Below are positions 2,864 to 37,951 of a DNA stretch of 37,951 nt, in pieces. The position numbers and the translations under genes are program-made. A model generated the notes under the pieces. That model searched no databases and was not told the DNA's origin. It saw nothing but the letters and a program-made list of their open reading frames with translations. This stretch comes from a virus. The DNA lies in IMG/VR virus record IMGVR_UViG_3300043036_000015, positions 1-37,951 of that record, one strand, 5' to 3'. How positions within the stretch are numbered: the stretch's first letter is position 1; every line of letters starts with the position of its first letter.

Positions 2864-4123
2864 TTAGTACCCCGATATAGCGTCATAAACCTCAAAGTCA
2901 TCTTCCTCGTAATCGGGGACAAATGAGTTGAGGGCAAGTTGTTCAATGTAAGCTAAAGCATCCACCAAGTCATCATGTACTCCCTTGGTAGGGAACATCA
3001 AGAGCTGGTCTTCAAAGTCTGACCAATCCTCATCCTCGTTGAGAGTGACTTTGCCGTGCTCCATACGCCCTTGTAAGGCCCATATCACACGGTCAGTCTT
3101 CTTCTTATTTCCATGAGTCAAAGTCTGGATGTGAGCATAGGTGTTGTACTGACGCATCATGTCCTGCAAGATGGTCAAGGCAGCATTCTTAGCTGTACCT
3201 CTCTCAATACCGATAGCCAAGGGCTGATACTCTTTGATGACCTTAAGGATACGCATACAGGTATCTTTAATGTCCCAACGTCCATGCTCAATCTTGTCTA
3301 CCCACCAATCACCATTATCCGTTACCTTGACGATAGCGATAGCTGATTCATCTAGTCTCTTTTTGTTCTGGGAACCATCTGAGATGTCTTCAAAGCCTGC
3401 CAAGTCGATAGCGATAATGTATGAACCATCACGAGGCTCTGGACCTTTCTTGATCCAATGCTCTTTAAAGATGTCAGAACCTGAGGTATCGAAGCTAGAC
3501 AGGTATTCCTGCTTGAAAGCAAAGCTACTCAAGGTACGCTTGGCTGCTTCAATCTCTTTAGGGTCAATAGTCTCGTTATCAGCGGTAGTCTTGTGCCACG
3601 CCTTCCACTCTTCATCTGATCCGTCCTTGCCTAGCTTATAGACATCGTAGAACCAATTACGACCAGAAGGAGTAGAGATAAACAAAGCCCTACCTTTCTT
3701 GTCCGACAAAGCAGCACGGATAACCTTCTCCCAAATCTCCTGCTTAATGAAAGCACATTCGTCCAGTACCACGTACACAAGGGACACACCACGAAGACTA
3801 TCGGGGTTATCAGCACCTCGAACCAGAATCTTTCTTCCGTTGACAAGGGTAATCTCTAAGTTGTTAATGTGTGAAGACTTGATCACTGGCCTACCAAGGT
3901 CATGTAACAAGTCCCAGATAATAGTTCTAGCTTGTCCAAGGGTAGGTGCTATGTACATCACAGCAGAGCCTTCAGGACAGTTTAAAGCCTCTATAAGCAG
4001 CGTTACCGCAGACAGTCTAGACTTACCACAGCGGCGACCAGCAGCTACTACCTTGAATCGGGTAGAGTCTTTAAAGACCTCTTGCTGCCAGTTAAGTAAA
4101 GCGAAGTTTAACTCAGACATCAA
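2864..4123 (-). CDS. terL: Terminase large subunit
   Basis: 419 aa. Walker A-like AAGRRCGKS, Walker B-like VVLDECAF, and C-terminal nuclease-type motifs (AIDLAG, VHDDLVDALAY). Confidence 0.88.
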   Translation of the reverse strand: MMSELNFALLNWQQEVFKDSTRFKVVAAGRRCGKSRLSAVTLLIEALNCPEGSAVMYIAPTLGQARTIIWDLLHDLGRPVIKSSHINNLEITLVNGRKILVRGADNPDSLRGVSLVYVVLDECAFIKQEIWEKVIRAALSDKKGRALFISTPSGRNWFYDVYKLGKDGSDEEWKAWHKTTADNETIDPKEIEAAKRTLSSFAFKQEYLSSFDTSGSDIFKEHWIKKGPEPRDGSYIIAIDLAGFEDISDGSQNKKRLDESAIAIVKVTDNGDWWVDKIEHGRWDIKDTCMRILKVIKEYQPLAIGIERGTAKNAALTILQDMMRQYNTYAHIQTLTHGNKKKTDRVIWALQGRMEHGKVTLNEDEDWSDFEDQLLMFPTKGVHDDLVDALAYIEQLALNSFVPDYEEDDFEVYDAISGY

Positions 4124-4484
4124 TCACATCCTCATCGGTGCTTACAGAGGGCGTATTCAAGCCGGTAATGTTGATGGAGATGTTAGGTACACCACCACCC
4201 TGCTTTGCTGCCTCGAAGGACGACACAGGTACAATCCTATCGACAATTAGCTTCCATGCAGCAGCTTGGTTCTTATGTTCATCGTTCAGAGCTGCATCGT
4301 ATATAGCCTCTAAGACCTTAGCACTCTTAGGTGAGTTAAGCATACGTAGCTTATACTCATTGATGATAGCAGCCTCACCTTTGGGACGACCTACTGATCT
4401 ACTCTCTTTGATTTCTCTAAGCTCAGACTTCTTTGGACGACCAATCTTACGCTTAGGTTCATCCTGTTGTTCTTCATTTTCCAT
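4113..4484 (-). CDS. terS: Terminase small subunit (putative)
   Basis: 123 aa and the first gene of the minus arm. It overlaps terL by 11 nt. The basic N-terminus has GRPKK / GRPKG DNA-binding-like repeats. Confidence 0.6.
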   Translation of the reverse strand: MENEEQQDEPKRKIGRPKKSELREIKESRSVGRPKGEAAIINEYKLRMLNSPKSAKVLEAIYDAALNDEHKNQAAAWKLIVDRIVPVSSFEAAKQGGGVPNISINITGLNTPSVSTDEDVIDV

Positions 4485-4544
4485 TTGTCTTTATCCTTTC
4501 TTAGGGAGACAACCTATCTACTTTTAGACCAAATGCTTATGCAC

Positions 4545-4558
4545 TTAAAGTACTTTAA
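4545..4558. promoter_or_regulatory. Perfect 14-bp palindrome TTAAAGTACTTTAA in the leader of the structural operon
   Basis: Read directly. It lies between the late promoter (4722-4750) and the terS ATG (4484). Confidence 0.55.
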
Positions 4559-4585
4559 AGGAACGTATAAGTTAAGAACTTAAAC

Positions 4586-4613
4586 ACTTATAGTATAAGT
4601 ACTTAGTGTAAGT
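4586..4613. promoter_or_regulatory. Two adjacent ACTTA..TAAGT palindromes (ACTTATAgTATAAGT, ACTTAgtgTAAGT)
   Basis: Read directly. The same core recurs at 8131-8141 downstream of another promoter. Confidence 0.5.
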
Positions 4614-4721
4614 ATTCTGTTAGTATTTAACTTATACATTCGTTGTATCAACTGTCCAGATTCCATGTTAGAGCTTAAGAGTCCATCACCTTCTTAGCAA
4701 CTATCATTACCTTATATGTAT

Positions 4722-4750
4722 ATTATACCATACTTTCTTGGATTTGTCAA
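4722..4750 (-). promoter_or_regulatory. Consensus sigma70 promoter for the structural (minus) arm
   Basis: The minus strand reads TTGACA(4750-4745)-17 nt-TATAAT(4727-4722), with TGg immediately upstream of the -10 (extended -10). The ACATATAAG tail resembles the other promoters. Confidence 0.75.
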
Positions 4751-4983
4751 GCTTTTCCTTCATTTGTTACAATTATTTACATATGTTACTTCTTAGGCAC
4801 TCCCTCCGACGCTCCGCTGGTGTCCACTATCGTTACCCTTAGACAGCAAACACTATGGTTTGTCTAGTCCTTATACTTTTTCTTGTCTATCAACTACTTA
4901 GCGCTTTAAGTGACATGGGCTAATCTGTCCTTAGTTAACAGAGTTAACCAACTAATTAATTCCTTTATTACCTTTTTTGTGAG

Positions 4984-5000
4984 CGTTGCAGGCTCCTACA
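4984..5000. repeat. Left arm of a perfect 17-bp inverted repeat (CGTTGCAGGCTCCTACA)
   Basis: Its reverse complement TGTAGGAGCCTGCAACG occurs at 5254-5270. Confidence 0.9.
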
Positions 5001-5040
5001 AAGATAAACTCATAAGCCACACCCCTCCCCCCCTACTAAG

Positions 5041-5340
5041 CAGTCACAAAGTTACTGATCAGTCACTATCTGTACACAACGGTAGCTAACTGTACGCATC
5101 TGTCGTTAACTATACCGCACAGTTATGGTGCATAATGGTCAGTCACAATGTATACTGATGAGTCACGTTGTAGACTGTTAGTGTAAGTTATAGACTGTTG
5201 AGTCACGTTGCAGACTGTTGAGTTACTTTGCAGGCAGATGGTGTGAGAGATGATGTAGGAGCCTGCAACGTATACTTACCAGCCACAACGCTACACTTAA
5301 CAGTCACAATCTAAACTACTCAGTCACAATCCAGCCACTA
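5041..5340 (+). repeat. Iteron-like array with an AGTCAC core repeated at about 20-bp phasing
   Basis: AGTCAC starts at 5042, 5061, 5141, 5161, 5201, 5302 and 5322. Variants AGTTAC/AGCCAC start at 5050, 5221, 5281 and 5333. Five consecutive degenerate 20-bp units span 5141-5240, and 5161-5180 matches 5201-5220 at 18/20. Confidence 0.85.
5254..5270. repeat. Right arm of the 17-bp inverted repeat
   Basis: Exact reverse complement of 4984-5000, with 253 bp between the arms. Confidence 0.9.
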
Positions 5341-5357
5341 CATTCACAGCTTGGAAG

Positions 5358-5428
5358 TTATCCACAGGTTGTTAAAGCACTGCCGAGTTATCCACAGCAC
5401 AGCAACATCCATGCCAGAGTTATCCACA
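5358..5428 (+). promoter_or_regulatory. Three perfect DnaA boxes (TTATCCACA) in direct orientation
   Basis: AGTTATCCACAG occurs three times. The 9-mers are at 5358-5366, 5388-5396 and 5420-5428 and match the E. coli-type high-affinity DnaA box consensus. Confidence 0.8.
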
Positions 5429-5457
5429 GGTTATCAGTCTTATATAAGACCTGAGAC

Positions 5458-5488
5458 TGTGGACAAGTACCACTACTGGTGTGGACAA
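5458..5488 (-). promoter_or_regulatory. Two inverted DnaA-box-like sites (TTGTCCACA, 8/9 match)
   Basis: TGTGGACAA occurs at 5458-5466 and 5480-5488, facing the three direct boxes. Confidence 0.6.
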
Positions 5489-5562
5489 CATTTGCCAAGG
5501 GGTAGGGTAGGGCAAGGGTAGATCGCGCCTCTACGGGCCTTTAAATCGATTTGATCGAAAGA

Positions 5563-5580
5563 TGTAACAAAGTGTAACAA
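5563..5580 (+). promoter_or_regulatory. Direct repeat TGTAACAA-N2-TGTAACAA upstream of the early promoter
   Basis: Read directly. It ends 15 bp upstream of the -35. A near-identical TGTTACAA pair sits upstream of the 8054 promoter. Confidence 0.45.
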
Positions 5581-5595
5581 ACAGGCTCAAAGGTG

Positions 5596-5623
5596 TTGAC
5601 ATTCACATCTGACGTGGTACACT
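5596..5623 (+). promoter_or_regulatory. Early sigma70 promoter
   Basis: TTGACA(5596-5601)-16 nt-TACACT(5618-5623) with an upstream TGg. It lies about 50 nt upstream of the first plus-arm gene. Confidence 0.7.
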
Positions 5624-5671
5624 ACATTCATGGAGTCGGGAAAGGCCTGACACCACAACTAAGGAACCATC

Positions 5672-5893
5672 ATGAAATTCACTCAATCATTTGACATTTG
5701 GGCTGTACCCTCTGCACTGCTCAAGCATGTGCAGCCGGGTCAATGGGTCTATGCTGGCACTAAGGACAATAAGGGCAGGTTCCTTGGCGTCAAGAAGTCA
5801 GGAACCATTGTCGTGGCTTGGCACGGTAACACCAAAGCACGGGCTGATAAGGCCTCTTACATCAAAACATTGCGTGCATACGCTAAAGGTTAA
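5672..5893 (+). CDS. Early protein, basic, unknown function
   Basis: 73-aa ORF with an AAGGA SD 7 nt upstream. It is the first gene after the promoter. Confidence 0.65.
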   Translation: MKFTQSFDIWAVPSALLKHVQPGQWVYAGTKDNKGRFLGVKKSGTIVVAWHGNTKARADKASYIKTLRAYAKG

Positions 5894-7811: not shown

Positions 7812-8057
7812 ATGCACTGTATCGTGTGTGACAAGAATCTGAAAGATCATGAGGCTGTTCGCCGCCATGCCTTAACCAATGAATTCTTAGACATCTGTGA
7901 TGGCTGTTTGAAGGAAATACCGGGATTACCTACAAAGTCCCCTGCTGGCATGGTGTCAGATGCTGACCCTTTCGAGGAGACAGACGACACTGTGGATGTG
8001 GAGGCTATCAGTGGGTCTGTTACAAACTGTTACAACTTAAACGATGACGACTATTGA
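7812..8057 (+). CDS. Zinc-ribbon-like protein with an acidic C-terminal tail
   Basis: 81 aa with CxxC...CxxC spacing (CIVC...CDGC) and a D/E-rich tail. A strong AAAGGAG SD lies upstream. Confidence 0.65.
   Translation: MHCIVCDKNLKDHEAVRRHALTNEFLDICDGCLKEIPGLPTKSPAGMVSDADPFEETDDTVDVEAISGSVTNCYNLNDDDY
8018..8035 (+). promoter_or_regulatory. Direct repeat TGTTACAA-N2-TGTTACAA upstream of the 8054 promoter
   Basis: Read directly. It has the same spacing and a similar distance to the -35 as the repeat at 5563-5580. It lies within the 3' end of CDS 7812..8057. Confidence 0.4.
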
Positions 8058-8081
8058 CAGTTGGACAACCAGTGATATAAT
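8054..8081 (+). promoter_or_regulatory. Consensus sigma70 promoter (middle/replication genes)
   Basis: TTGACA-16 nt-TATAAT with an upstream TGa, followed by TTCTATATAG (compare TTACATATAG at 13991). Confidence 0.75.
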
Positions 8082-8130
8082 TTCTATATAGACACTAAGA
8101 CATTTCATAGATGTTAACCTACTAACAGAT

Positions 8131-8141
8131 ACTTAGTAAGT
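8131..8141. promoter_or_regulatory. Palindrome ACTTAgTAAGT in the leader downstream of the 8054 promoter
   Basis: It has the same half-sites as the palindromes at 4586-4613. Confidence 0.4.
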
Positions 8142-8217
8142 TATACATTGTATGTCTTTACTCTATAGTCCTTTAAAGTCTATATATGAGGTGTTGAAAT
8201 GAACGGAGTGAATGGAT

Positions 8218-8736: not shown

Positions 8737-9067
8737 CATGAAAGACGAAGCATTGGACAAGGCGCTGGAGGCGTTGGAAAAGATTTCCAGAACTCAATAC
8801 CACATTGAAACCCCGCCAATTGAAAGTCTTGAGGAGCAGATGCGGCGCATTGCTGACAAAGCCATCACCGCTTGTGAGCAAGCCCTTGCAGCACCTGTGC
8901 AGGAGCCTGTAAAACACTTAATGGTTGCTTACGAACTAGCTCAAAAAGAACTTGCCCGTTTAGTCAAAGAAAACTTTGGACAAATGCCTAGGAATGATAA
9001 ATGGGCCGACAGTGTTCTCGACTTGCGCAATAAACTTGAATCTCAAAAAACTGAAAGTAAAAAATGA
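8720..9067 (+). CDS. Hypothetical coiled-coil protein
   Basis: 115-aa ORF containing an APVQEPV segment that is also present in the next gene. Confidence 0.6.
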   Translation: MMSTIDMKDEALDKALEALEKISRTQYHIETPPIESLEEQMRRIADKAITACEQALAAPVQEPVKHLMVAYELAQKELARLVKENFGQMPRNDKWADSVLDLRNKLESQKTESKK

Positions 9068-9507
9068 AGGCTTATTGCAAAAACTGCCAATTAATACAAC
9101 CTGCCAGCTTTAGACTCGAAAAGGATGCCATAACAGGATCACATTACGAAGACTTGTGCTGCGATAGTTGCCACTTTATTGCCGCAACAATTCAAGAACG
9201 TGAGGCTCCTGCGCAACCCGCACCTGTGCAGGAGCCTGTGGCGTATTTGGTAACAGGGCCATATGAAAAGCGTTTATTTCCAGACCTTAATTCTGCCAAC
9301 GCATATTGCAGTGGGCTAAACAGAGGTTGGGGTAAAGAGGTTTACACAGTTAGCTCTCTCTACACCACCCCACCCACAGCACAGCGGCAATGGGTTGGGC
9401 TGACGGATGAGGAGATTGCTACGGCTTGGCCTTATGAATTAGGACTATTAGAGAAACAATTTGCCTTTAACTTAGAAGTCAAATTAAAGGAGAAGAACAA
9501 TGGCTAG
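9064..9507 (+). CDS. Hypothetical Cys-rich protein
   Basis: 147-aa ORF with an ATGA overlap upstream and an N-terminal CxxC...CxxC pattern. Confidence 0.6.
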   Translation: MKAYCKNCQLIQPASFRLEKDAITGSHYEDLCCDSCHFIAATIQEREAPAQPAPVQEPVAYLVTGPYEKRLFPDLNSANAYCSGLNRGWGKEVYTVSSLYTTPPTAQRQWVGLTDEEIATAWPYELGLLEKQFAFNLEVKLKEKNNG

Positions 9508-11424: not shown

Positions 11425-11646
11425 ATGCCTGACATTAGTATGTGTAACGATTATTCCTGTCCTAAGTTTGACAAGTGCTACCGAGCGCAGGCTAAACCTA
11501 GTGAGTACCGACAAGCATACTTTGCTAGTTCACCTCGTAGTGTAGACGGTTGCGAATACTTTAGCCCTTTGGAAAAAACAAATGAGAATAGTTCTCGACA
11601 TCGAAACAAACCTAGCACACGACAAGATTCACCTAGTCGTGACTAA
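11425..11646 (+). CDS. Cys-rich small protein, unknown function
   Basis: Track ORF 11410..11646. I prefer the ATG at 11425 with a GAGGAGG SD. It overlaps the DNA polymerase start by 65 nt in another frame. Confidence 0.5.
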   Translation: MPDISMCNDYSCPKFDKCYRAQAKPSEYRQAYFASSPRSVDGCEYFSPLEKTNENSSRHRNKPSTRQDSPSRD

Positions 11647-12832
11647 AGACATTGACACTGGAGAAGTACGCACATGGAAAGCAGCAAGCAACCTGCCGGA
11701 GTTTTTAAAGGACGCATCGTTGATAGTCATGCACAACGGCATAAGTTTCGATGCACCAGTATTGAATCGCTTATGGAAGACGAAGATTCGTTCGAGTCAA
11801 GTGTACGATACATTGATAGTAAGCAGGCTTCTCGACCCGAGCCGCGAGAACGGTCACAGCCTCGAAGCATGGGGACAAACTCTAGGCTTTCACAAGATTG
11901 ACTATGCTGCTGTATGGCGGTGGATGATGGACAGGAAGGAAGAGTATGCAGGAGAGTGTTTTGACAGCCCTATTGCTGGTCTTCTTGAGCATTACTGTGT
12001 TAGGGACGTTGAAGTTACTTGTAAGCTGTATCATCGGCTTAACAGTGACTTGGCTGAGAAGCAGTTTAGCCAAGAGAGTGTCGAACTCGAACACAGAGTA
12101 GCAGCAATCATATCAAAGCAAGAACGAAATGGATTCAAACTTGACCAAATCTACGCAACCTGTTTACTTACTGACATCAAGTCAAAAGTGGCAGGAATAT
12201 ATGAGCGAATGCAACAGAGATGGCCTCCTGTCACTCTTGAGCGATTCTCTGACAAAACAGGAAAGAGACTCAAGGACAGCGTGGTTACTTTCAACCCCGG
12301 AAGTAGACAGCAAATTGGGGAACGACTGAAGGAACTCGGATGGAAGCCCAAGGAGTTCACAGAGACAGGTATTCCAAAGGTAGATGAAACTATCTTAGCT
12401 AACATCAAGATTCCAGAAGCTCAGGTTATTGCTGAGTATCTGATGCTACAGAAACGTATCAGTCAGATTGAGTCTTGGATGGAAGCTGTAGGCAAGGATG
12501 GTAGGGTGCATGGTAAGGTCATTACTAACGGTGCTGTTACAGGCCGAATGACCCACAGTAGCCCTAACATGGCTCAGATCCCCAATGCAGGTTCCATCTA
12601 TGGGCCTGAGTGCCGGGAATGCTGGTCAGTTGAGGATGGTAATGTGTTGGTAGGTTGCGATGCTTCAGGTCTGGAGCTTCGTATGTTGGCTCACTATATG
12701 AAGGATGAAGATTATGTCAGAACTGTCTGTGAGGGATCATCTAAAGATGGAACGGATGTTCATACAGTTAACCAAAGAGCAGCAGGACTCTCTTCTAGAG
12801 ATAATGCAAAGACTTTTATCTACGCCTTCCTT
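11582..12832 (+). CDS. Family A DNA polymerase (T7 gp5-like), exon 1
   Basis: 417 codons. Exo I motif LDIETN sits near the N-terminus. The exon ends ...SRDNAKTFIYAFL, in the middle of motif B (O-helix), and a stop codon follows immediately. Confidence 0.9.
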
Positions 12833-12943
12833 TGACTAAATAGAGGCTTTACCTAGGAATAGGTATCGAAAATCCGGTGAACTCAGGGGAAGACCAGAAC
12901 GGTTAATCCTGAGCCAAGCAAGTAAGCTTATTGTAAGTCATTT

Positions 12944-12952
12944 ATGCTATAA
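12944..12952 (+). promoter_or_regulatory. Extended -10 element (TGcTATAAT) inside the intron, upstream of the endonuclease ORF
   Basis: Read directly. There is no good -35. An AAGGAG SD follows at 12969-12974. Confidence 0.4.
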
Positions 12953-12980
12953 TATAGGCTCCGTAACATAAGGAGTAGAT

Positions 12981-13424
12981 ATGACAGCATTAACACAAAC
13001 AGAATTGCAGTTTCGCCATCGTAGGACACTGAAAGGAACTATCTCTAACAAACTAATGTCAGCCAAGAAACGAGCAAGAAACGATAATTTATCTTTCGAG
13101 CTTGATAACGCTTACGTAACTTCTCTCTGGGAACAACAAGAAGGTAAGTGTGCAAAAACAGGTGTTGAGTTAGGACGTATTGGAGATAAGTGGTTATCCC
13201 CTTCCTTGGATCGCATTGATCCTTTACAAGGATACATAAAAGGGAATGTTCAGTGGACTTGTTGGAGATATAATGATGCTAAGAGTAACATGAGTGATGA
13301 TTCGTTTACTTCCATGTGTCTAGCAATCGCTGCTACTTATTTTAAGCAACTTGAAGGTGCAACGACTATCCCGAAAGGGAGTACATCCAAGCGGATGGAA
13401 GCGCCGGACAACCAGTTAGGTTGA
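12981..13424 (+). CDS. Intron-encoded HNH-type (His-Me finger) homing endonuclease (putative)
   Basis: 147-aa ORF with SLDRIDPLQGYIKGNVQWTCWRYNDAK, which resembles the xDRID..GY..xNvq....N..K pattern of many phage proteins annotated as HNH endonucleases. It has a strong SD, and its 3' end overlaps the ribozyme core. Confidence 0.65.
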   Translation: MTALTQTELQFRHRRTLKGTISNKLMSAKKRARNDNLSFELDNAYVTSLWEQQEGKCAKTGVELGRIGDKWLSPSLDRIDPLQGYIKGNVQWTCWRYNDAKSNMSDDSFTSMCLAIAATYFKQLEGATTIPKGSTSKRMEAPDNQLG

Positions 13425-13504
13425 TGATATAGTCTGCTCTACATAGGAATATGTAGCAGTTCGTAAGAACGGACAGAGCCTAGCGAACTCTGTTGAACAT
13501 TAGG

Positions 13505-13966
13505 TATGGTGCGGGAGATGCAAAGATTGGTAGTATTGTGGGGGGCAGTGCAAGAGATGGAACAAAGCTCAAAGCCAAGTTCCTCGCGCAAACACCGTCC
13601 CTCGCTAAACTTCTTGAACGAGTCGGAAAGCAAGCAGCAAAAGGATGGGTTCCCGGACTTGATGGGAGGCGTATTTGGGTTCGATCCGAGCATGCGGCTC
13701 TCAATTCGCTCCTCCAAGGGGCCGGAGCAATCGTGATGAAGAAGGCTCTCGTGATCTTTGATGACAAACGCAAGGCTAACAAATGGCCTGTGAAGTATGT
13801 CGCCAATGTCCACGATGAGGCCCAGCTAGAATGCCCTAAAGATATTGCTGAGGAGGTCGGTAAAGCCTTCAGACAAAGTATCATTGAGGCAGGGGAAGCT
13901 TACAGTTTACGGTGTCCACTAGATGGGGAGTACAAGATTGGTAGAAACTGGAGAGAAACACATTGA
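13505..13966 (+). CDS. Family A DNA polymerase, exon 2
   Basis: It begins YGAGDAKIGSIVGG..., which completes motif B, and contains motif C (NVHDEAQLE). The spliced product is 570 aa. Confidence 0.88.
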   Translation, partial: YGAGDAKIGSIVGGSARDGTKLKAKFLAQTPSLAKLLERVGKQAAKGWVPGLDGRRIWVRSEHAALNSLLQGAGAIVMKKALVIFDDKRKANKWPVKYVANVHDEAQLECPKDIAEEVGKAFRQSIIEAGEAYSLRCPLDGEYKIGRNWRETH

Positions 13967-13990
13967 CATTGCTTAAAAGCATGGTATAAT
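13963..13990 (+). promoter_or_regulatory. Consensus sigma70 promoter driving the tRNA and downstream genes
   Basis: TTGACA(13963-13968)-16 nt-TATAAT(13985-13990) with an upstream TGg. The -35 overlaps the polymerase stop codon. Confidence 0.75.
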
Positions 13991-14001
13991 TTACATATAG
14001 A

Positions 14002-14086
14002 GCGAGTGTGGTGGAATTGGTATACACAGCAGACTTAAAATCTGCCGCCGAAAGGATTGAGGGATCGTGACCCTCCACTCGCACCA
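14002..14086 (+). tRNA. tRNA-Leu (anticodon UAA), type II with long variable arm, encoded CCA
   Basis: Hand-folded. Acceptor GCGAGTG/CACTCGC; 3-bp D stem with GG in the loop; anticodon stem GCAGA/TCTGC with loop CTTAAAA; 13-nt variable region; T stem GAGGG/CCCTC; discriminator A followed by CCA. Confidence 0.85.
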
Positions 14087-22692: not shown

Positions 22693-22700
22693 ATGAAAAA

Positions 22701-22731
22701 GGCCCGTTAGAGCGATGAACTCTAACGGGCC
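22701..22731. terminator. Bidirectional rho-independent terminator between the convergent arms
   Basis: 12-bp perfect stem GGCCCGTTAGAG/CTCTAACGGGCC with a 7-nt loop. It is flanked by AAAAA on one side and TTATTTGTT on the other, which gives a U-tract on both strands. Confidence 0.88.
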
Positions 22732-22739
22732 TTATTTGT

Positions 22740-22967
22740 TTATGGTTTACTGTTATGCGCGATAGTCACGAAAGCAGCTACTGTAGCAACAATCCAGAGC
22801 AGAGGTTTAGCAACCTTAGCTACCCACTCAAGGACGGTGAAGGCTCCAGAGGCAGCGGTAAAAGCTGCTACCATTCCTTCTGTGTCCTGTGCCACTTTAT
22901 CTACTTTAGCTTCTACCTTACATAGTCGCTCATAGATCTCATTATGAGATATATCCTTTTGCTCCAT
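22740..22967 (-). CDS. Small membrane protein at the end of the lysis cluster
   Basis: 75 aa with C-terminal hydrophobic segments. It is the last gene of the minus arm. Confidence 0.55.
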   Translation of the reverse strand: MEQKDISHNEIYERLCKVEAKVDKVAQDTEGMVAAFTAASGAFTVLEWVAKVAKPLLWIVATVAAFVTIAHNSKP

Positions 22968-36148: not shown

Positions 36149-36178
36149 ATAAAGAAAAGAGAAGCCCCGAAGGGCCTC
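36149..36178 (-). terminator. Rho-independent terminator after the capsid gene
   Basis: The minus-strand RNA reads GAGGCCC-UUCG-GGGCUUC followed by UCUUUUCUUUAUU. It starts 18 nt after the capsid stop. Confidence 0.85.
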
Positions 36179-36196
36179 CCTAAAGCTACTTAGCTA

Positions 36197-37155: not shown

Positions 37156-37938
37156 TTACTTAACTCGACCTTGTGCATAAGCTGCCATGATTTCAGGTTG
37201 GAGCAGCTCATACCGATCTGGGTCGGTCATCTTCAGACGGATTAAATCCGCACGGCGGTAAACTTTCTTTGCAACTTCGCCAGATCCACTTGTATCCACA
37301 CCAGCGGCTCGAAGAGCTTGTGCTTGTTGTTTCTTACCAGTTTCCTGTATGTTGTTGTTACGAACCTGTTTAAGTTCTTTGTACGTGCTTAAGAGTTCAT
37401 CTGCTGAACCGAAGTCAAACTCTGCATCAGCCTTGGCATACAGACTCAGACGAATAGGGCTTGCCTTGACCCACTCCTGAAATCCAGTGTCGTTGGCAAT
37501 ACTGCCAAAGTCAGGATGTTTGGAAGCAAGCTGCTGCGCTGTCTTCATCCGTTTAAGCTCAAGGTTGGCTTGTTTAGCCTCCAGAACTGCGGGGTTATTC
37601 TCGATTGCACGTTTAATCGAATCTTGAGGGTTCTCAAAGAAATCAACTTCGGGCGTACTTTCAACAGTCTGTGCCTTATCGCTTTCGAGTTGTCGTTTAA
37701 GCAGTTGATCCGCTAATGAACGTACTTCGTGTACTTCCTGTGCTTGCCTCCCAATCATCTTTTCAGCTTCTTGGTGCATCTTAACAATATCCTCTAAGGA
37801 CTTGTCTTTGTATTTATCAGGAATTACCTTCTCTACTACAGGCTCTGGAGTTTGTTCCACTGCGGGAGTCTCTTGTACCTGTTCTTCATCAATCGTATCC
37901 AAGTTTGGGTCAAACGATTCTTGCTCAATAAGTGCCAT
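37156..37938 (-). CDS. Scaffolding protein (putative)
   Basis: 260 aa, acidic and helical, located immediately upstream of the capsid gene. Confidence 0.65.
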   Translation of the reverse strand: MALIEQESFDPNLDTIDEEQVQETPAVEQTPEPVVEKVIPDKYKDKSLEDIVKMHQEAEKMIGRQAQEVHEVRSLADQLLKRQLESDKAQTVESTPEVDFFENPQDSIKRAIENNPAVLEAKQANLELKRMKTAQQLASKHPDFGSIANDTGFQEWVKASPIRLSLYAKADAEFDFGSADELLSTYKELKQVRNNNIQETGKKQQAQALRAAGVDTSGSGEVAKKVYRRADLIRLKMTDPDRYELLQPEIMAAYAQGRVK

Positions 37939-37951
37939 ACTATTATTCTCC
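37825..37951. repeat. Terminal overlap, copy 2 (identical to 1..127)
   Basis: Exact 127-bp match to the window start. Confidence 0.97.

Follow-up and report, generated by a model that had tools for sequence, protein, structure and literature searches.

A perfect sigma70 promoter and a probable structured leader RNA at the head of the late operon of an uncultured podovirus-like phage

The lambda sites nutL and nutR are paralogous leader RNA sites that lie past two promoters, and the early region of T7 combines very strong sigma70 promoters with a long untranslated leader and an extended imperfect hairpin, its R sites being homologous to one another within the genome. Phage HK022 carries two sequence-related RNAs, putL and putR, downstream of its two early promoters (PMC9378689). 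Here we examine positions 4485-4750 of the IMG/VR virus record IMGVR_UViG_3300043036_000015, whose 37,951 nucleotides were analyzed as a whole and are referred to below as the window; on the minus strand of this region a consensus sigma70 promoter stands ahead of the late genes and is followed by a long AT-rich leader. We lean toward reading the region as a strong host-sigma70 promoter plus a transcribed, modular and structured RNA in the 5' untranslated region (5'UTR), not as an array of operators. The leader element matches no described family; its nearest counterparts are the leader RNAs found in T7 or in lambdoid phages.

The locus has in common with HK022 putL and putR that two related structured RNAs lie past the strong sigma70 promoters of long operons, one copy near the start and the other deeper in its leader, with no dedicated phage protein evident (PMC9378689). 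This likeness to put is one of layout only. The put RNAs are about 70 nt long, form two stems arranged in a V and contact the beta' zinc-binding domain, whereas here an AU-rich extended hairpin of 95-120 nt is accompanied by separate hairpins; moreover, HK022 is lambdoid whereas the present lineage is podovirus-like. The T7-like character of the replication genes is a further point of contact with T7, from which the locus differs in having two sites at operon 5' ends, a strongly conserved apex and no RNA polymerase of its own that could be recognized. Another comparison is offered by the lambda pR'-qut-tR' region, which likewise has a strong constitutive sigma70 promoter ahead of its late genes, an approximately 200-nt leader and a -10-like hexamer early in the transcript (TATAAG here). 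Unlike the situation in lambda, there is no intrinsic terminator within the leader (4485-4715, minus strand), no Q-like gene was found, and the -10-like element is also present behind a tRNA promoter.

Comparative work was based on IMG/VR and metagenome contigs because phages in GenBank gave no close match: none resembles the genome at the nucleotide level, 4100-5400 included, the first open reading frame (ORF) of the late operon found no protein counterpart, and terL identity to GenBank phages is at most 30%. IMG/VR holds hundreds of relatives, and the capsid protein has at least 8000 homologues in metagenomes; the lineage is very abundant in metagenomes, environmental, uncultured and podovirus-like. 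Late-leader alignments were made with 23 leaders of the type seen in the window (window-type) and then enlarged to 50. The 8054 region of relatives was retrieved with the primase-helicase gene, the 147-aa ORF at 9064-9507 having given only distant mosaics as a query. Three promoters of the window are needed for what follows.

4722-4750, minus strand: late promoter, with -35 TTGACA at 4750-4745, a 17-nt spacer and an extended -10 TGgTATAAT at 4730-4722
8054-8081, plus strand: second perfect promoter, called the M promoter, which heads the replication and nucleotide-metabolism operon
13963-14086, plus strand: third perfect promoter together with a tRNA-Leu(UAA) gene, which begins about 12 nt past the -10

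The sequence-only reading from which this analysis started had placed TTGACA-17-TGgTATAAT at 4750-4722 on the minus strand, and the promoter is found at exactly these coordinates. It is one of only three sigma70 promoters in the window that match at 12/12 positions (4750, minus; 8054, plus; 13963, plus), all of them with the TG extension, where 0.01 are expected from shuffles. A 12/12 late promoter is also present in the upstream regions of 39 of 73 distinct relatives, 204-340 nt ahead of the first ATG. The hexamers of these promoters are invariant and their spacer sequences differ, which is the signature of a functional promoter and shows that the hexamers are under selection. The M promoter is conserved as TTGAC[A/T]-N17-TATAAT in 33 distinct relatives (TTGACA in all of those listed), with the same first gene each time. 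In the window, the late -10 ends 237 nt ahead of the ATG at 4484-4482, and its position would put the transcription start near 4715, giving a predicted leader of about 231 nt in agreement with the approximately 230 nt first proposed. That late genes from terS onward lie behind this promoter is also borne out, the genes in question being a 123-aa terS-like ORF (so called by position), terL and portal. Less remains of the oddness that had been seen in a consensus promoter for late genes. Scans against Pfam and PHROGs recognized no RNA polymerase, repressor or antiterminator gene among the ORFs scanned, all long operons use such promoters, and the phage appears to be wholly dependent on host RNA polymerase. 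A -10-like hexamer (TATAAG/TATAGA) trails all three perfect promoters and is poorly conserved in relatives; because the tRNA promoter has one too, the hexamer is not late-specific, and a lambda-Q-type sigma-dependent pause was rejected on these two grounds. Relatives carry one or two tRNA genes downstream of promoters similar to that at 13963.

The leader behind the late promoter can be divided into the following parts.

4485-4715, minus strand: predicted 5'UTR of about 231 nt, for a start near 4715 as judged from the -10
4673-4698, minus strand: hairpin HP1, GCUAAGA-AGGUGAUGGAC-UCUUAAGC, with a covarying stem and a conserved purine-rich loop UGRNGGW
4636-4664, minus strand: near-invariant 29-nt block GGAAUCUGGACAGUUGAUACAACGAAUGU, which includes a small GUUG-AUA-CAAC hairpin
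4561-4641, minus strand: long composite hairpin closed by a 15-bp helix, GAAUGUAUAAGUUAA (4641-4627) with UUAACUUAUACGUUC (4575-4561)
4544-4561, minus strand: near-invariant CCUUUAAAGUACUUUAAG, which holds the 14-bp palindrome at 4545-4558 and the same AAGUACUU core as at 4597-4604
4485-4533, minus strand: 3' part of the leader, with (K)KGUCUA repeats (UUUGGUCUA at 4533-4525) and then a GUCUCC-loop-GGAUAAAGAC hairpin at 4510-4487, just ahead of the ATG at 4484-4482

Both the length of the leader and the order of its blocks are conserved across many relatives. The GGAAUCUGGACAGUUGAUACAACGAAUGU block is near-identical in all 50 window-type leaders, a few of which vary at its two leading bases and at the G/C/T position that follows GGAAUCUG, and it is retained even where the terS-like protein is only 54% identical. 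The 15-bp closing helix, itself an inverted repeat, surrounds an AT-rich module that contains the palindromes at 4613-4601 and 4600-4586. Toward the 3' end, the (K)KGUCUA repeat is present in 1-4 copies in relatives, and the weak GUCUCC-loop-GGAUAAAGAC hairpin, which spans part of the Shine-Dalgarno sequence AAGGA, has 7 pairs that are 100% paired and without variation in the 50 leaders. Where relatives have an extra ORF ahead of terS, the whole leader, including its 3' block, precedes the first gene of the operon, which ties the leader to the start of the operon instead of to terS. This inserted ORF is found in eight relatives and encodes about 130-150 aa with a CxxC-rich, zinc-finger-like composition; in the L101/L103 subgroup, and there alone, the end of the leader is a hairpin with a U-run just before the inserted ORF. 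No conserved reading frame was detected in the leader in the alignments of 23 and 50 relatives, and a leader peptide (ATG 4666-4664, 28-codon frame) was rejected on finding the ATG absent in most aligned relatives. A search of Rfam 15 returned the tRNA alone at gathering score, chance-level matches only at E<=10 in 4300-5700, and nothing in the leaders of five relatives.

Pairing in the leaders was assessed by mapping the minimum-free-energy pairs of each sequence to alignment columns and then counting the named structures; RNAalifold largely failed on MAFFT alignments, in which the stems are put out of line by AT-rich repeats and by shifts of 1 nt in register. HP1 is predicted in every variant despite stems as different as AAGA/UCUU, GUACG/CGUAC, CACGU/ACGUG, AUGUAG/CUAUGU and GAGGA/UCCU, and the loop UGRNGGW is retained throughout. 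Three pairs of its helix show changes on both sides, in 10-16 of the 50 sequences. The 15-bp helix is 91-94% paired, with an invariant U·G (50/50) and a compensatory UA to GC change at one pair in 6 sequences. When the named structure is applied to all 50 leaders, 90.6% of cells are paired compared to 33-39% with the partners slid. The covariation score is 0.083 versus 0.046±0.004 in shuffled alignments, double changes number 47 versus 22.5, and none of 500 shuffles reaches either value; the 23-sequence set gives the same outcome. This covariation signal arises from HP1 and one pair of the 15-bp helix. Moreover, G·U pairs outnumber A·C combinations by 36:4 in the 23-sequence structure and by 114:22 in the larger set, an excess that only pairing of the sense transcript would lead one to expect. 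Strand asymmetry of k-mers in the leaders was uninformative because the conserved blocks dominate.

Support for a transcribed module is also provided by a second copy behind the M promoter.

8087-8181, plus strand: paralogous, shortened AT-rich module (25.8 bits, sense), folding as one long hairpin from about +2

It had been noticed from the sequence that the palindrome ACTTAgTAAGT recurs downstream of the 8054 promoter; it lies at 8131-8141, and both the profile and the covariance model show real homology extending past the short motif. A covariance model built only from the M-leaders of relatives, R1, matches the window at 4550-4645 (minus) and 8087-8181 (plus), both in the sense orientation, and its sole further match is a weak antisense one over the late-leader site. 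An nhmmer profile made from the M-leaders agrees, its extra matches being weaker, on the opposite strand and within the same two regions. R1 also recognizes the late leader in practically every window-type relative, with sense scores above antisense scores (51.8 versus 30.7 bits in L013). In relatives, the M-leaders are 110-225 nt long and contain the full AT-rich module, and each version folds as one long imperfect hairpin of about 40-45 bp beginning at about +2; the pairs are column-consistent in 22 sequences, with 84.7% paired. The closing helices differ in sequence between the paralogues and are complementary in both. The module is present exactly twice per genome, with fixed polarity, just past the perfect promoters of the late operon, which spans about 19.7 kb, and of the replication operon, which spans about 14.5 kb; these are the long operons of the phage. 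It is found neither at the tRNA promoter nor at the short early operon. The 3' half of four M-leaders contains a 12-nt unit, AAAGTAACATTA / AAAGTAACGTTA, in two to four tandem copies, the copy number differing between related phages.

Several observations weigh against a role for the region as RNA. RNAalifold gives near-empty structures on MAFFT alignments of window-type leaders and nothing on M-leaders, and the window leader alone folds no better than its shuffles (z = -1.22). There is no compensatory change in the small ACTTA/TAAGT hairpins of the 50 leaders, the window-type covariation comes from few column pairs, and kinship of the sequences inflates shuffle tests. For the M-leader hairpin, covariation is 0.100 compared to 0.094 in shuffled alignments, a value that 103 of 500 shuffles reach, and the G·U:A·C ratio is only 40:30; taken together, these two results mean that the shared AT-rich module could equally be a conserved DNA inverted repeat. 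In addition, both the start site and the timing are predictions from sequence. With these points taken into account, we still regard action at the RNA level, in one form or another, as somewhat probable. The suggestion that the leader might be an RNA-level control element therefore holds in kind, given the conserved leader, the covarying HP1, the long helix and the two sense copies, whereas the function attached to it, a delay of late expression, is not supported.

As to what such an RNA would do, an element of the nut or put kind, which acts from the nascent transcript on host RNA polymerase, is a tentative first choice. The nascent leader would fold co-transcriptionally and act after initiation. 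Once folded, it would, alone or via a recruited factor, make host RNA polymerase resist termination or pausing, and the modified polymerase would pass the capsid-gene terminator (36181-36158) and continue to the terminator with the 15-bp stem at 22699-22733. The 3' hairpin at the ribosome-binding site may also tune translation of the first gene. Two terminators are relevant to this proposal.

36158-36181, minus strand: strong intrinsic terminator directly 3' of the capsid gene
22699-22733, both strands: bidirectional terminator with an unusually long stem of 14-15 bp, at the junction of the converging operons

The capsid-gene terminator is present in 24/24 diverse relatives, where it is kept as a structure and not as a sequence, and behind it there is just a ribosome-binding site before the next gene and no obvious promoter. 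Long terminator stems have been reported to be resistant to processive antitermination (PMC10325885). The context for antitermination, consisting of the two copies, the failure to recognize a polymerase or antiterminator gene and the terminators, is circumstantial. Phage capsid genes are commonly followed by a terminator, which operates through partial read-through and needs no antiterminator, and nothing ties the element described here to RNA polymerase. Nor is there similarity to the boxA of nut: no conserved boxA (GCUCUUUA-like) is seen in window-type leaders, the boxA-like CUCUUA in an arm of the HP1 stem covarying away. Window-type leaders also have no boxB-like hairpin, which occurs in divergent relatives only, and no N-like protein was recognized in the scanned ORFs.

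In seven divergent relatives, the window-type 5' part is replaced by a different RNA domain, about 150 nt long and with clear covariation. RNAalifold finds compensatory changes in 7 of the 18 pairs of this domain. Around the invariant CUC/AGA internal loop of its long-range helix, the outer stem takes four different sequences and the inner stem several; the domain further contains a hairpin of 8 bp, whose CCUGACCCCA loop is invariant, and a short, boxB-like stem with a GNRA-type cap (GAAA, GGAA or GUAA). The GNRA-capped GC stem CCCUGAAAGGG resembles lambda boxB, GCCCUGAAAAAGGGC. In three relatives, further copies of the GNRA-capped hairpin lie ahead of the promoter. The divergent domain has no Rfam match. 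It is conceivable, if doubtful, that the leader module is a new put-like RNA, protein-independent or dependent on a host factor, which converts host polymerase to a termination-resistant form, and that the divergent domain is a second structural solution. To our knowledge, the way in which such phages order and sustain transcription of operons of 15-20 kb is poorly understood beyond the lambdoid phages and T4, and a conserved leader RNA in two copies without an Rfam match provides a concrete and testable handle on long-operon transcription. It would contribute a new motif to the limited group of phage RNAs with effects on elongating polymerase or the fate of mRNA, and demonstration of an effect on RNA polymerase would give it high importance.

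Close behind the nut- or put-like proposal comes an explanation that is likewise possible but uncertain, in which the leader serves RNase III processing and/or as a 5' stabilizer: AU-rich hairpins would be cut or would be protective, with consequences for mRNA half-life, and the ribosome-binding site of the first gene would be freed or shaped. Models for this are the T7 early leader, with R0.3 downstream of promoters A1-A3, and the lambda N leader. Sites of this enzyme are extended duplexes of about two helical turns, often with an internal loop; the window offers a 15-bp helix plus flanking pairs. Duplex RNA as long as the M-leader hairpins of relatives is a substrate of proteobacterial RNase III, and the 15-bp helix of the late leader with its extensions, the T7-like replication module and the location of the ribosome-binding site inside an invariant weak hairpin fit as well. 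RNase III needs little sequence specificity, however, whereas both paralogues keep about 50 nt of the apex, and CUUUAAAGUAC, at the sequence level. The two copies, both at operon starts, also contrast with T7, which has sites between genes genome-wide. Furthermore, the two hairpins of the window are shorter and more interrupted than those of relatives. Should the leader turn out to serve RNase III processing or stability alone, the finding would be modest, yet it would correct a tempting operator reading.

That operator reading began with the ACTTA/TAAGT palindromes, which are present where they had been reported: TTAAAGTACTTTAA at 4545-4558, ACTTATAgTATAAGT at 4586-4600 and ACTTAgtgTAAGT at 4601-4613. 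The further half-sites are real too, with TATAAGT/ACTTATA occurring 5 times in the window and 4 of these in the late leader. ACTTA-N1-5-TAAGT is found 5 times in the window compared to 0.31 expected, and 3 of the 5 lie within the two leaders. As operators for a dimeric regulator the palindromes find no support. They lie at about +100 to +170 of the transcript, 109-177 nt past the -10 (4613-4545 versus 4722), and do not overlap the promoter; the ACTTA half-site reads ACATA in 16 of the 50 leaders and 21 of them have lost the innermost pair, in neither case with compensation; and the half-sites of the three leader copies are 1, 3 or 5 nt apart, a distance that also varies in relatives. Because they are not kept as palindromes and have this position and these variable spacers, the leader palindromes are unlikely to be operators. 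A search of relatives for the motif, which had been proposed as a check, thus shows the module recurring while the ACTTA half-site is lost in about a third of the 50 leaders. The truly invariant part of the AT-rich region, and one without covariation, consists of two palindromes with a AAGTACTT core (4597-4604 and 4548-4555). These could be pseudoknot partners, or protein sites on RNA or DNA.

A residual role at the DNA level is accordingly possible for the AAGTACTT-core palindromes, and an explanation built on it holds that they, and possibly TGTCTA/TAGACA repeats, bind a dimeric regulator that delays late expression by acting as a roadblock or by looping with sites upstream of the promoter. 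We consider this unlikely. Conservation without covariation is what protein sites would show, AAGTACTT occurs 3 times in the window with 2 copies in the late leader, and TAGACAA-type repeats lie on both sides of the promoter in the window and in relatives; the M-leaders add pairing without a strand-specific G·U excess and iteron-like 12-nt AAAGTAACATTA repeats in variable number. Against this, the sites lie at +110 to +170 within the transcript and not over the promoter, the spacing of the GTAC cores is about 45 bp in the late leader versus about 53 bp in M-leaders, and the M-leader of the window is without any AAGTACTT. The polarity of the module is fixed relative to transcription. A reading based on DNA alone is further weakened by the covariation of the flanking hairpins, which indicates that the region is constrained as RNA. 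No repressor-like gene had been recognizable in the sequence and none was recognized here with Pfam or PHROGs: helix-turn-helix and repressor families had no match among the early and middle ORFs (10 ORFs for Pfam, 40 for PHROGs; many small ORFs are without annotation), and no DNA-binding regulator was recognized in the ORFs scanned. The related TTGTCT/AGACAA motif was set aside as a specific operator; it is common genome-wide, with 41 copies or about twice our own estimate for uniform composition, and its spacing of 18-21 bp, counted by hand, is not cleanly phased.

Tandem TGTWACA sites upstream of the -35 are better placed for a DNA-binding protein.

4751-4781, minus strand: promoter-upstream elements, namely an A-tract GAAGGAAAAGC touching the -35 (UP-like), TGTAACA at 4771-4765 and a degenerate TGTAAAT at 4781-4775

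The degenerate copy lies ten bp further upstream than TGTAACA, and in most relatives TGTAACAA followed by the A-tract is found at a constant distance from the late -35. Copies of TGTWACA, a 7-bp palindrome, stand in tandem with a 10-bp interval at the early (5563-5579, plus), M (8018-8034, plus) and late promoters (4765-4781, minus; one copy degenerate), in each case 14-19 nt upstream of the -35, and none is present at the tRNA promoter. The full tandem is found at the M promoters of 27 of 30 relatives, and TGTAACA occurs 19 times in the window compared to 6.8 expected. These tandems are therefore better-placed candidate sites for a regulator than the leader palindromes, and they may be another answer to the puzzle of late timing. 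Timing by the order of DNA entry from the genome termini is speculation only, as contig ends lie at scattered positions.

The weakest explanation, which we regard as very improbable, makes the AT-rich block either a pac site to which the terS-like protein would bind through its AT-hook-like motifs or, together with the promoter, a transcription-activated origin resembling the primary origin of T7, with (K)KGTC repeats as primase sites; a pac role would agree with the conservation of these motifs and an origin with the T7-like primase-helicase and DNA polymerase and with displaced-strand TTGTC/TGGTC/GTGTC repeats, which we take to match T7 primase recognition sequences, but the module stays with the promoter and not with terS when an ORF intervenes, the copy at 8087-8181 would imply a second pac site, relatives of the divergent type keep the motifs without the AT-rich module, contig ends gather in the iteron/poly-G region and neither in the leader nor at one position, and a stronger origin candidate, with iterons and three perfect DnaA boxes, lies 600-900 bp away at 5041-5466. 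The protein concerned is encoded by the first late gene.

4113-4484, minus strand: terS-like gene of 123 aa, overlapping terL (2864-4123) and assigned as terS from its position

Its product has no Pfam or PHROG family match. Two AT-hook-like GRP motifs, K-x-GRPKK and VGRPKG, lie within residues 10-36 (4385-4455, minus strand) and are kept in all relatives down to 44% identity.

A likely replication origin lies at 5041-5490, within the non-coding stretch of 850 bp between the divergent operons. It contains CAGTCACAA/GAGTCAC iterons at 5041, 5140, 5160, 5200, 5301 and 5321, three perfect DnaA boxes TTATCCACA at 5358, 5388 and 5420, and two inverted near-boxes TGTGGACAA at 5458 and 5480; DnaA boxes and iterons are also carried by relatives. 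A C/G homopolymer, CCCCTCCCCCCC at 5022-5033, is highly variable in length among relatives, exceeding 40 G in one of them, and is flanked by 16-bp inverted repeats GTTGCAGGCTCCTACA / TGTAGGAGCCTGCAAC (4985-5000 and 5254-5269). The ends of IMG/VR contigs concentrate 490-830 nt upstream of the terS ATG, in the poly-G/iteron region, at scattered positions and not in the leader. Assembly breakage is the more likely cause of this cluster, the alternative being proximity to genome termini.

The first and last 127 bases of the window are identical (1-127 = 37825-37951, exact), which implies a complete circular assembly, opened at an arbitrary point within a gene, and a true genome length of 37,824 bp. 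The plus-strand arm, from about 5.6 to 22.7 kb, carries early, replication and nucleotide-metabolism genes, among them a T7-like primase-helicase, a split family-A DNA polymerase, ribonucleotide reductase, thymidylate synthase and PhoH. The minus-strand arm begins at 4484 with the terS-like ORF, terL and portal, wraps around the window end to the capsid and tail genes, and stops at 22740. The family-A DNA polymerase is encoded in two ORFs, 11582-12835 and 13493-13966 (region 11582-13966), and an HNH/endonuclease VII-like ORF at 12981-13424 sits between them, an arrangement that suggests insertion of a homing endonuclease.

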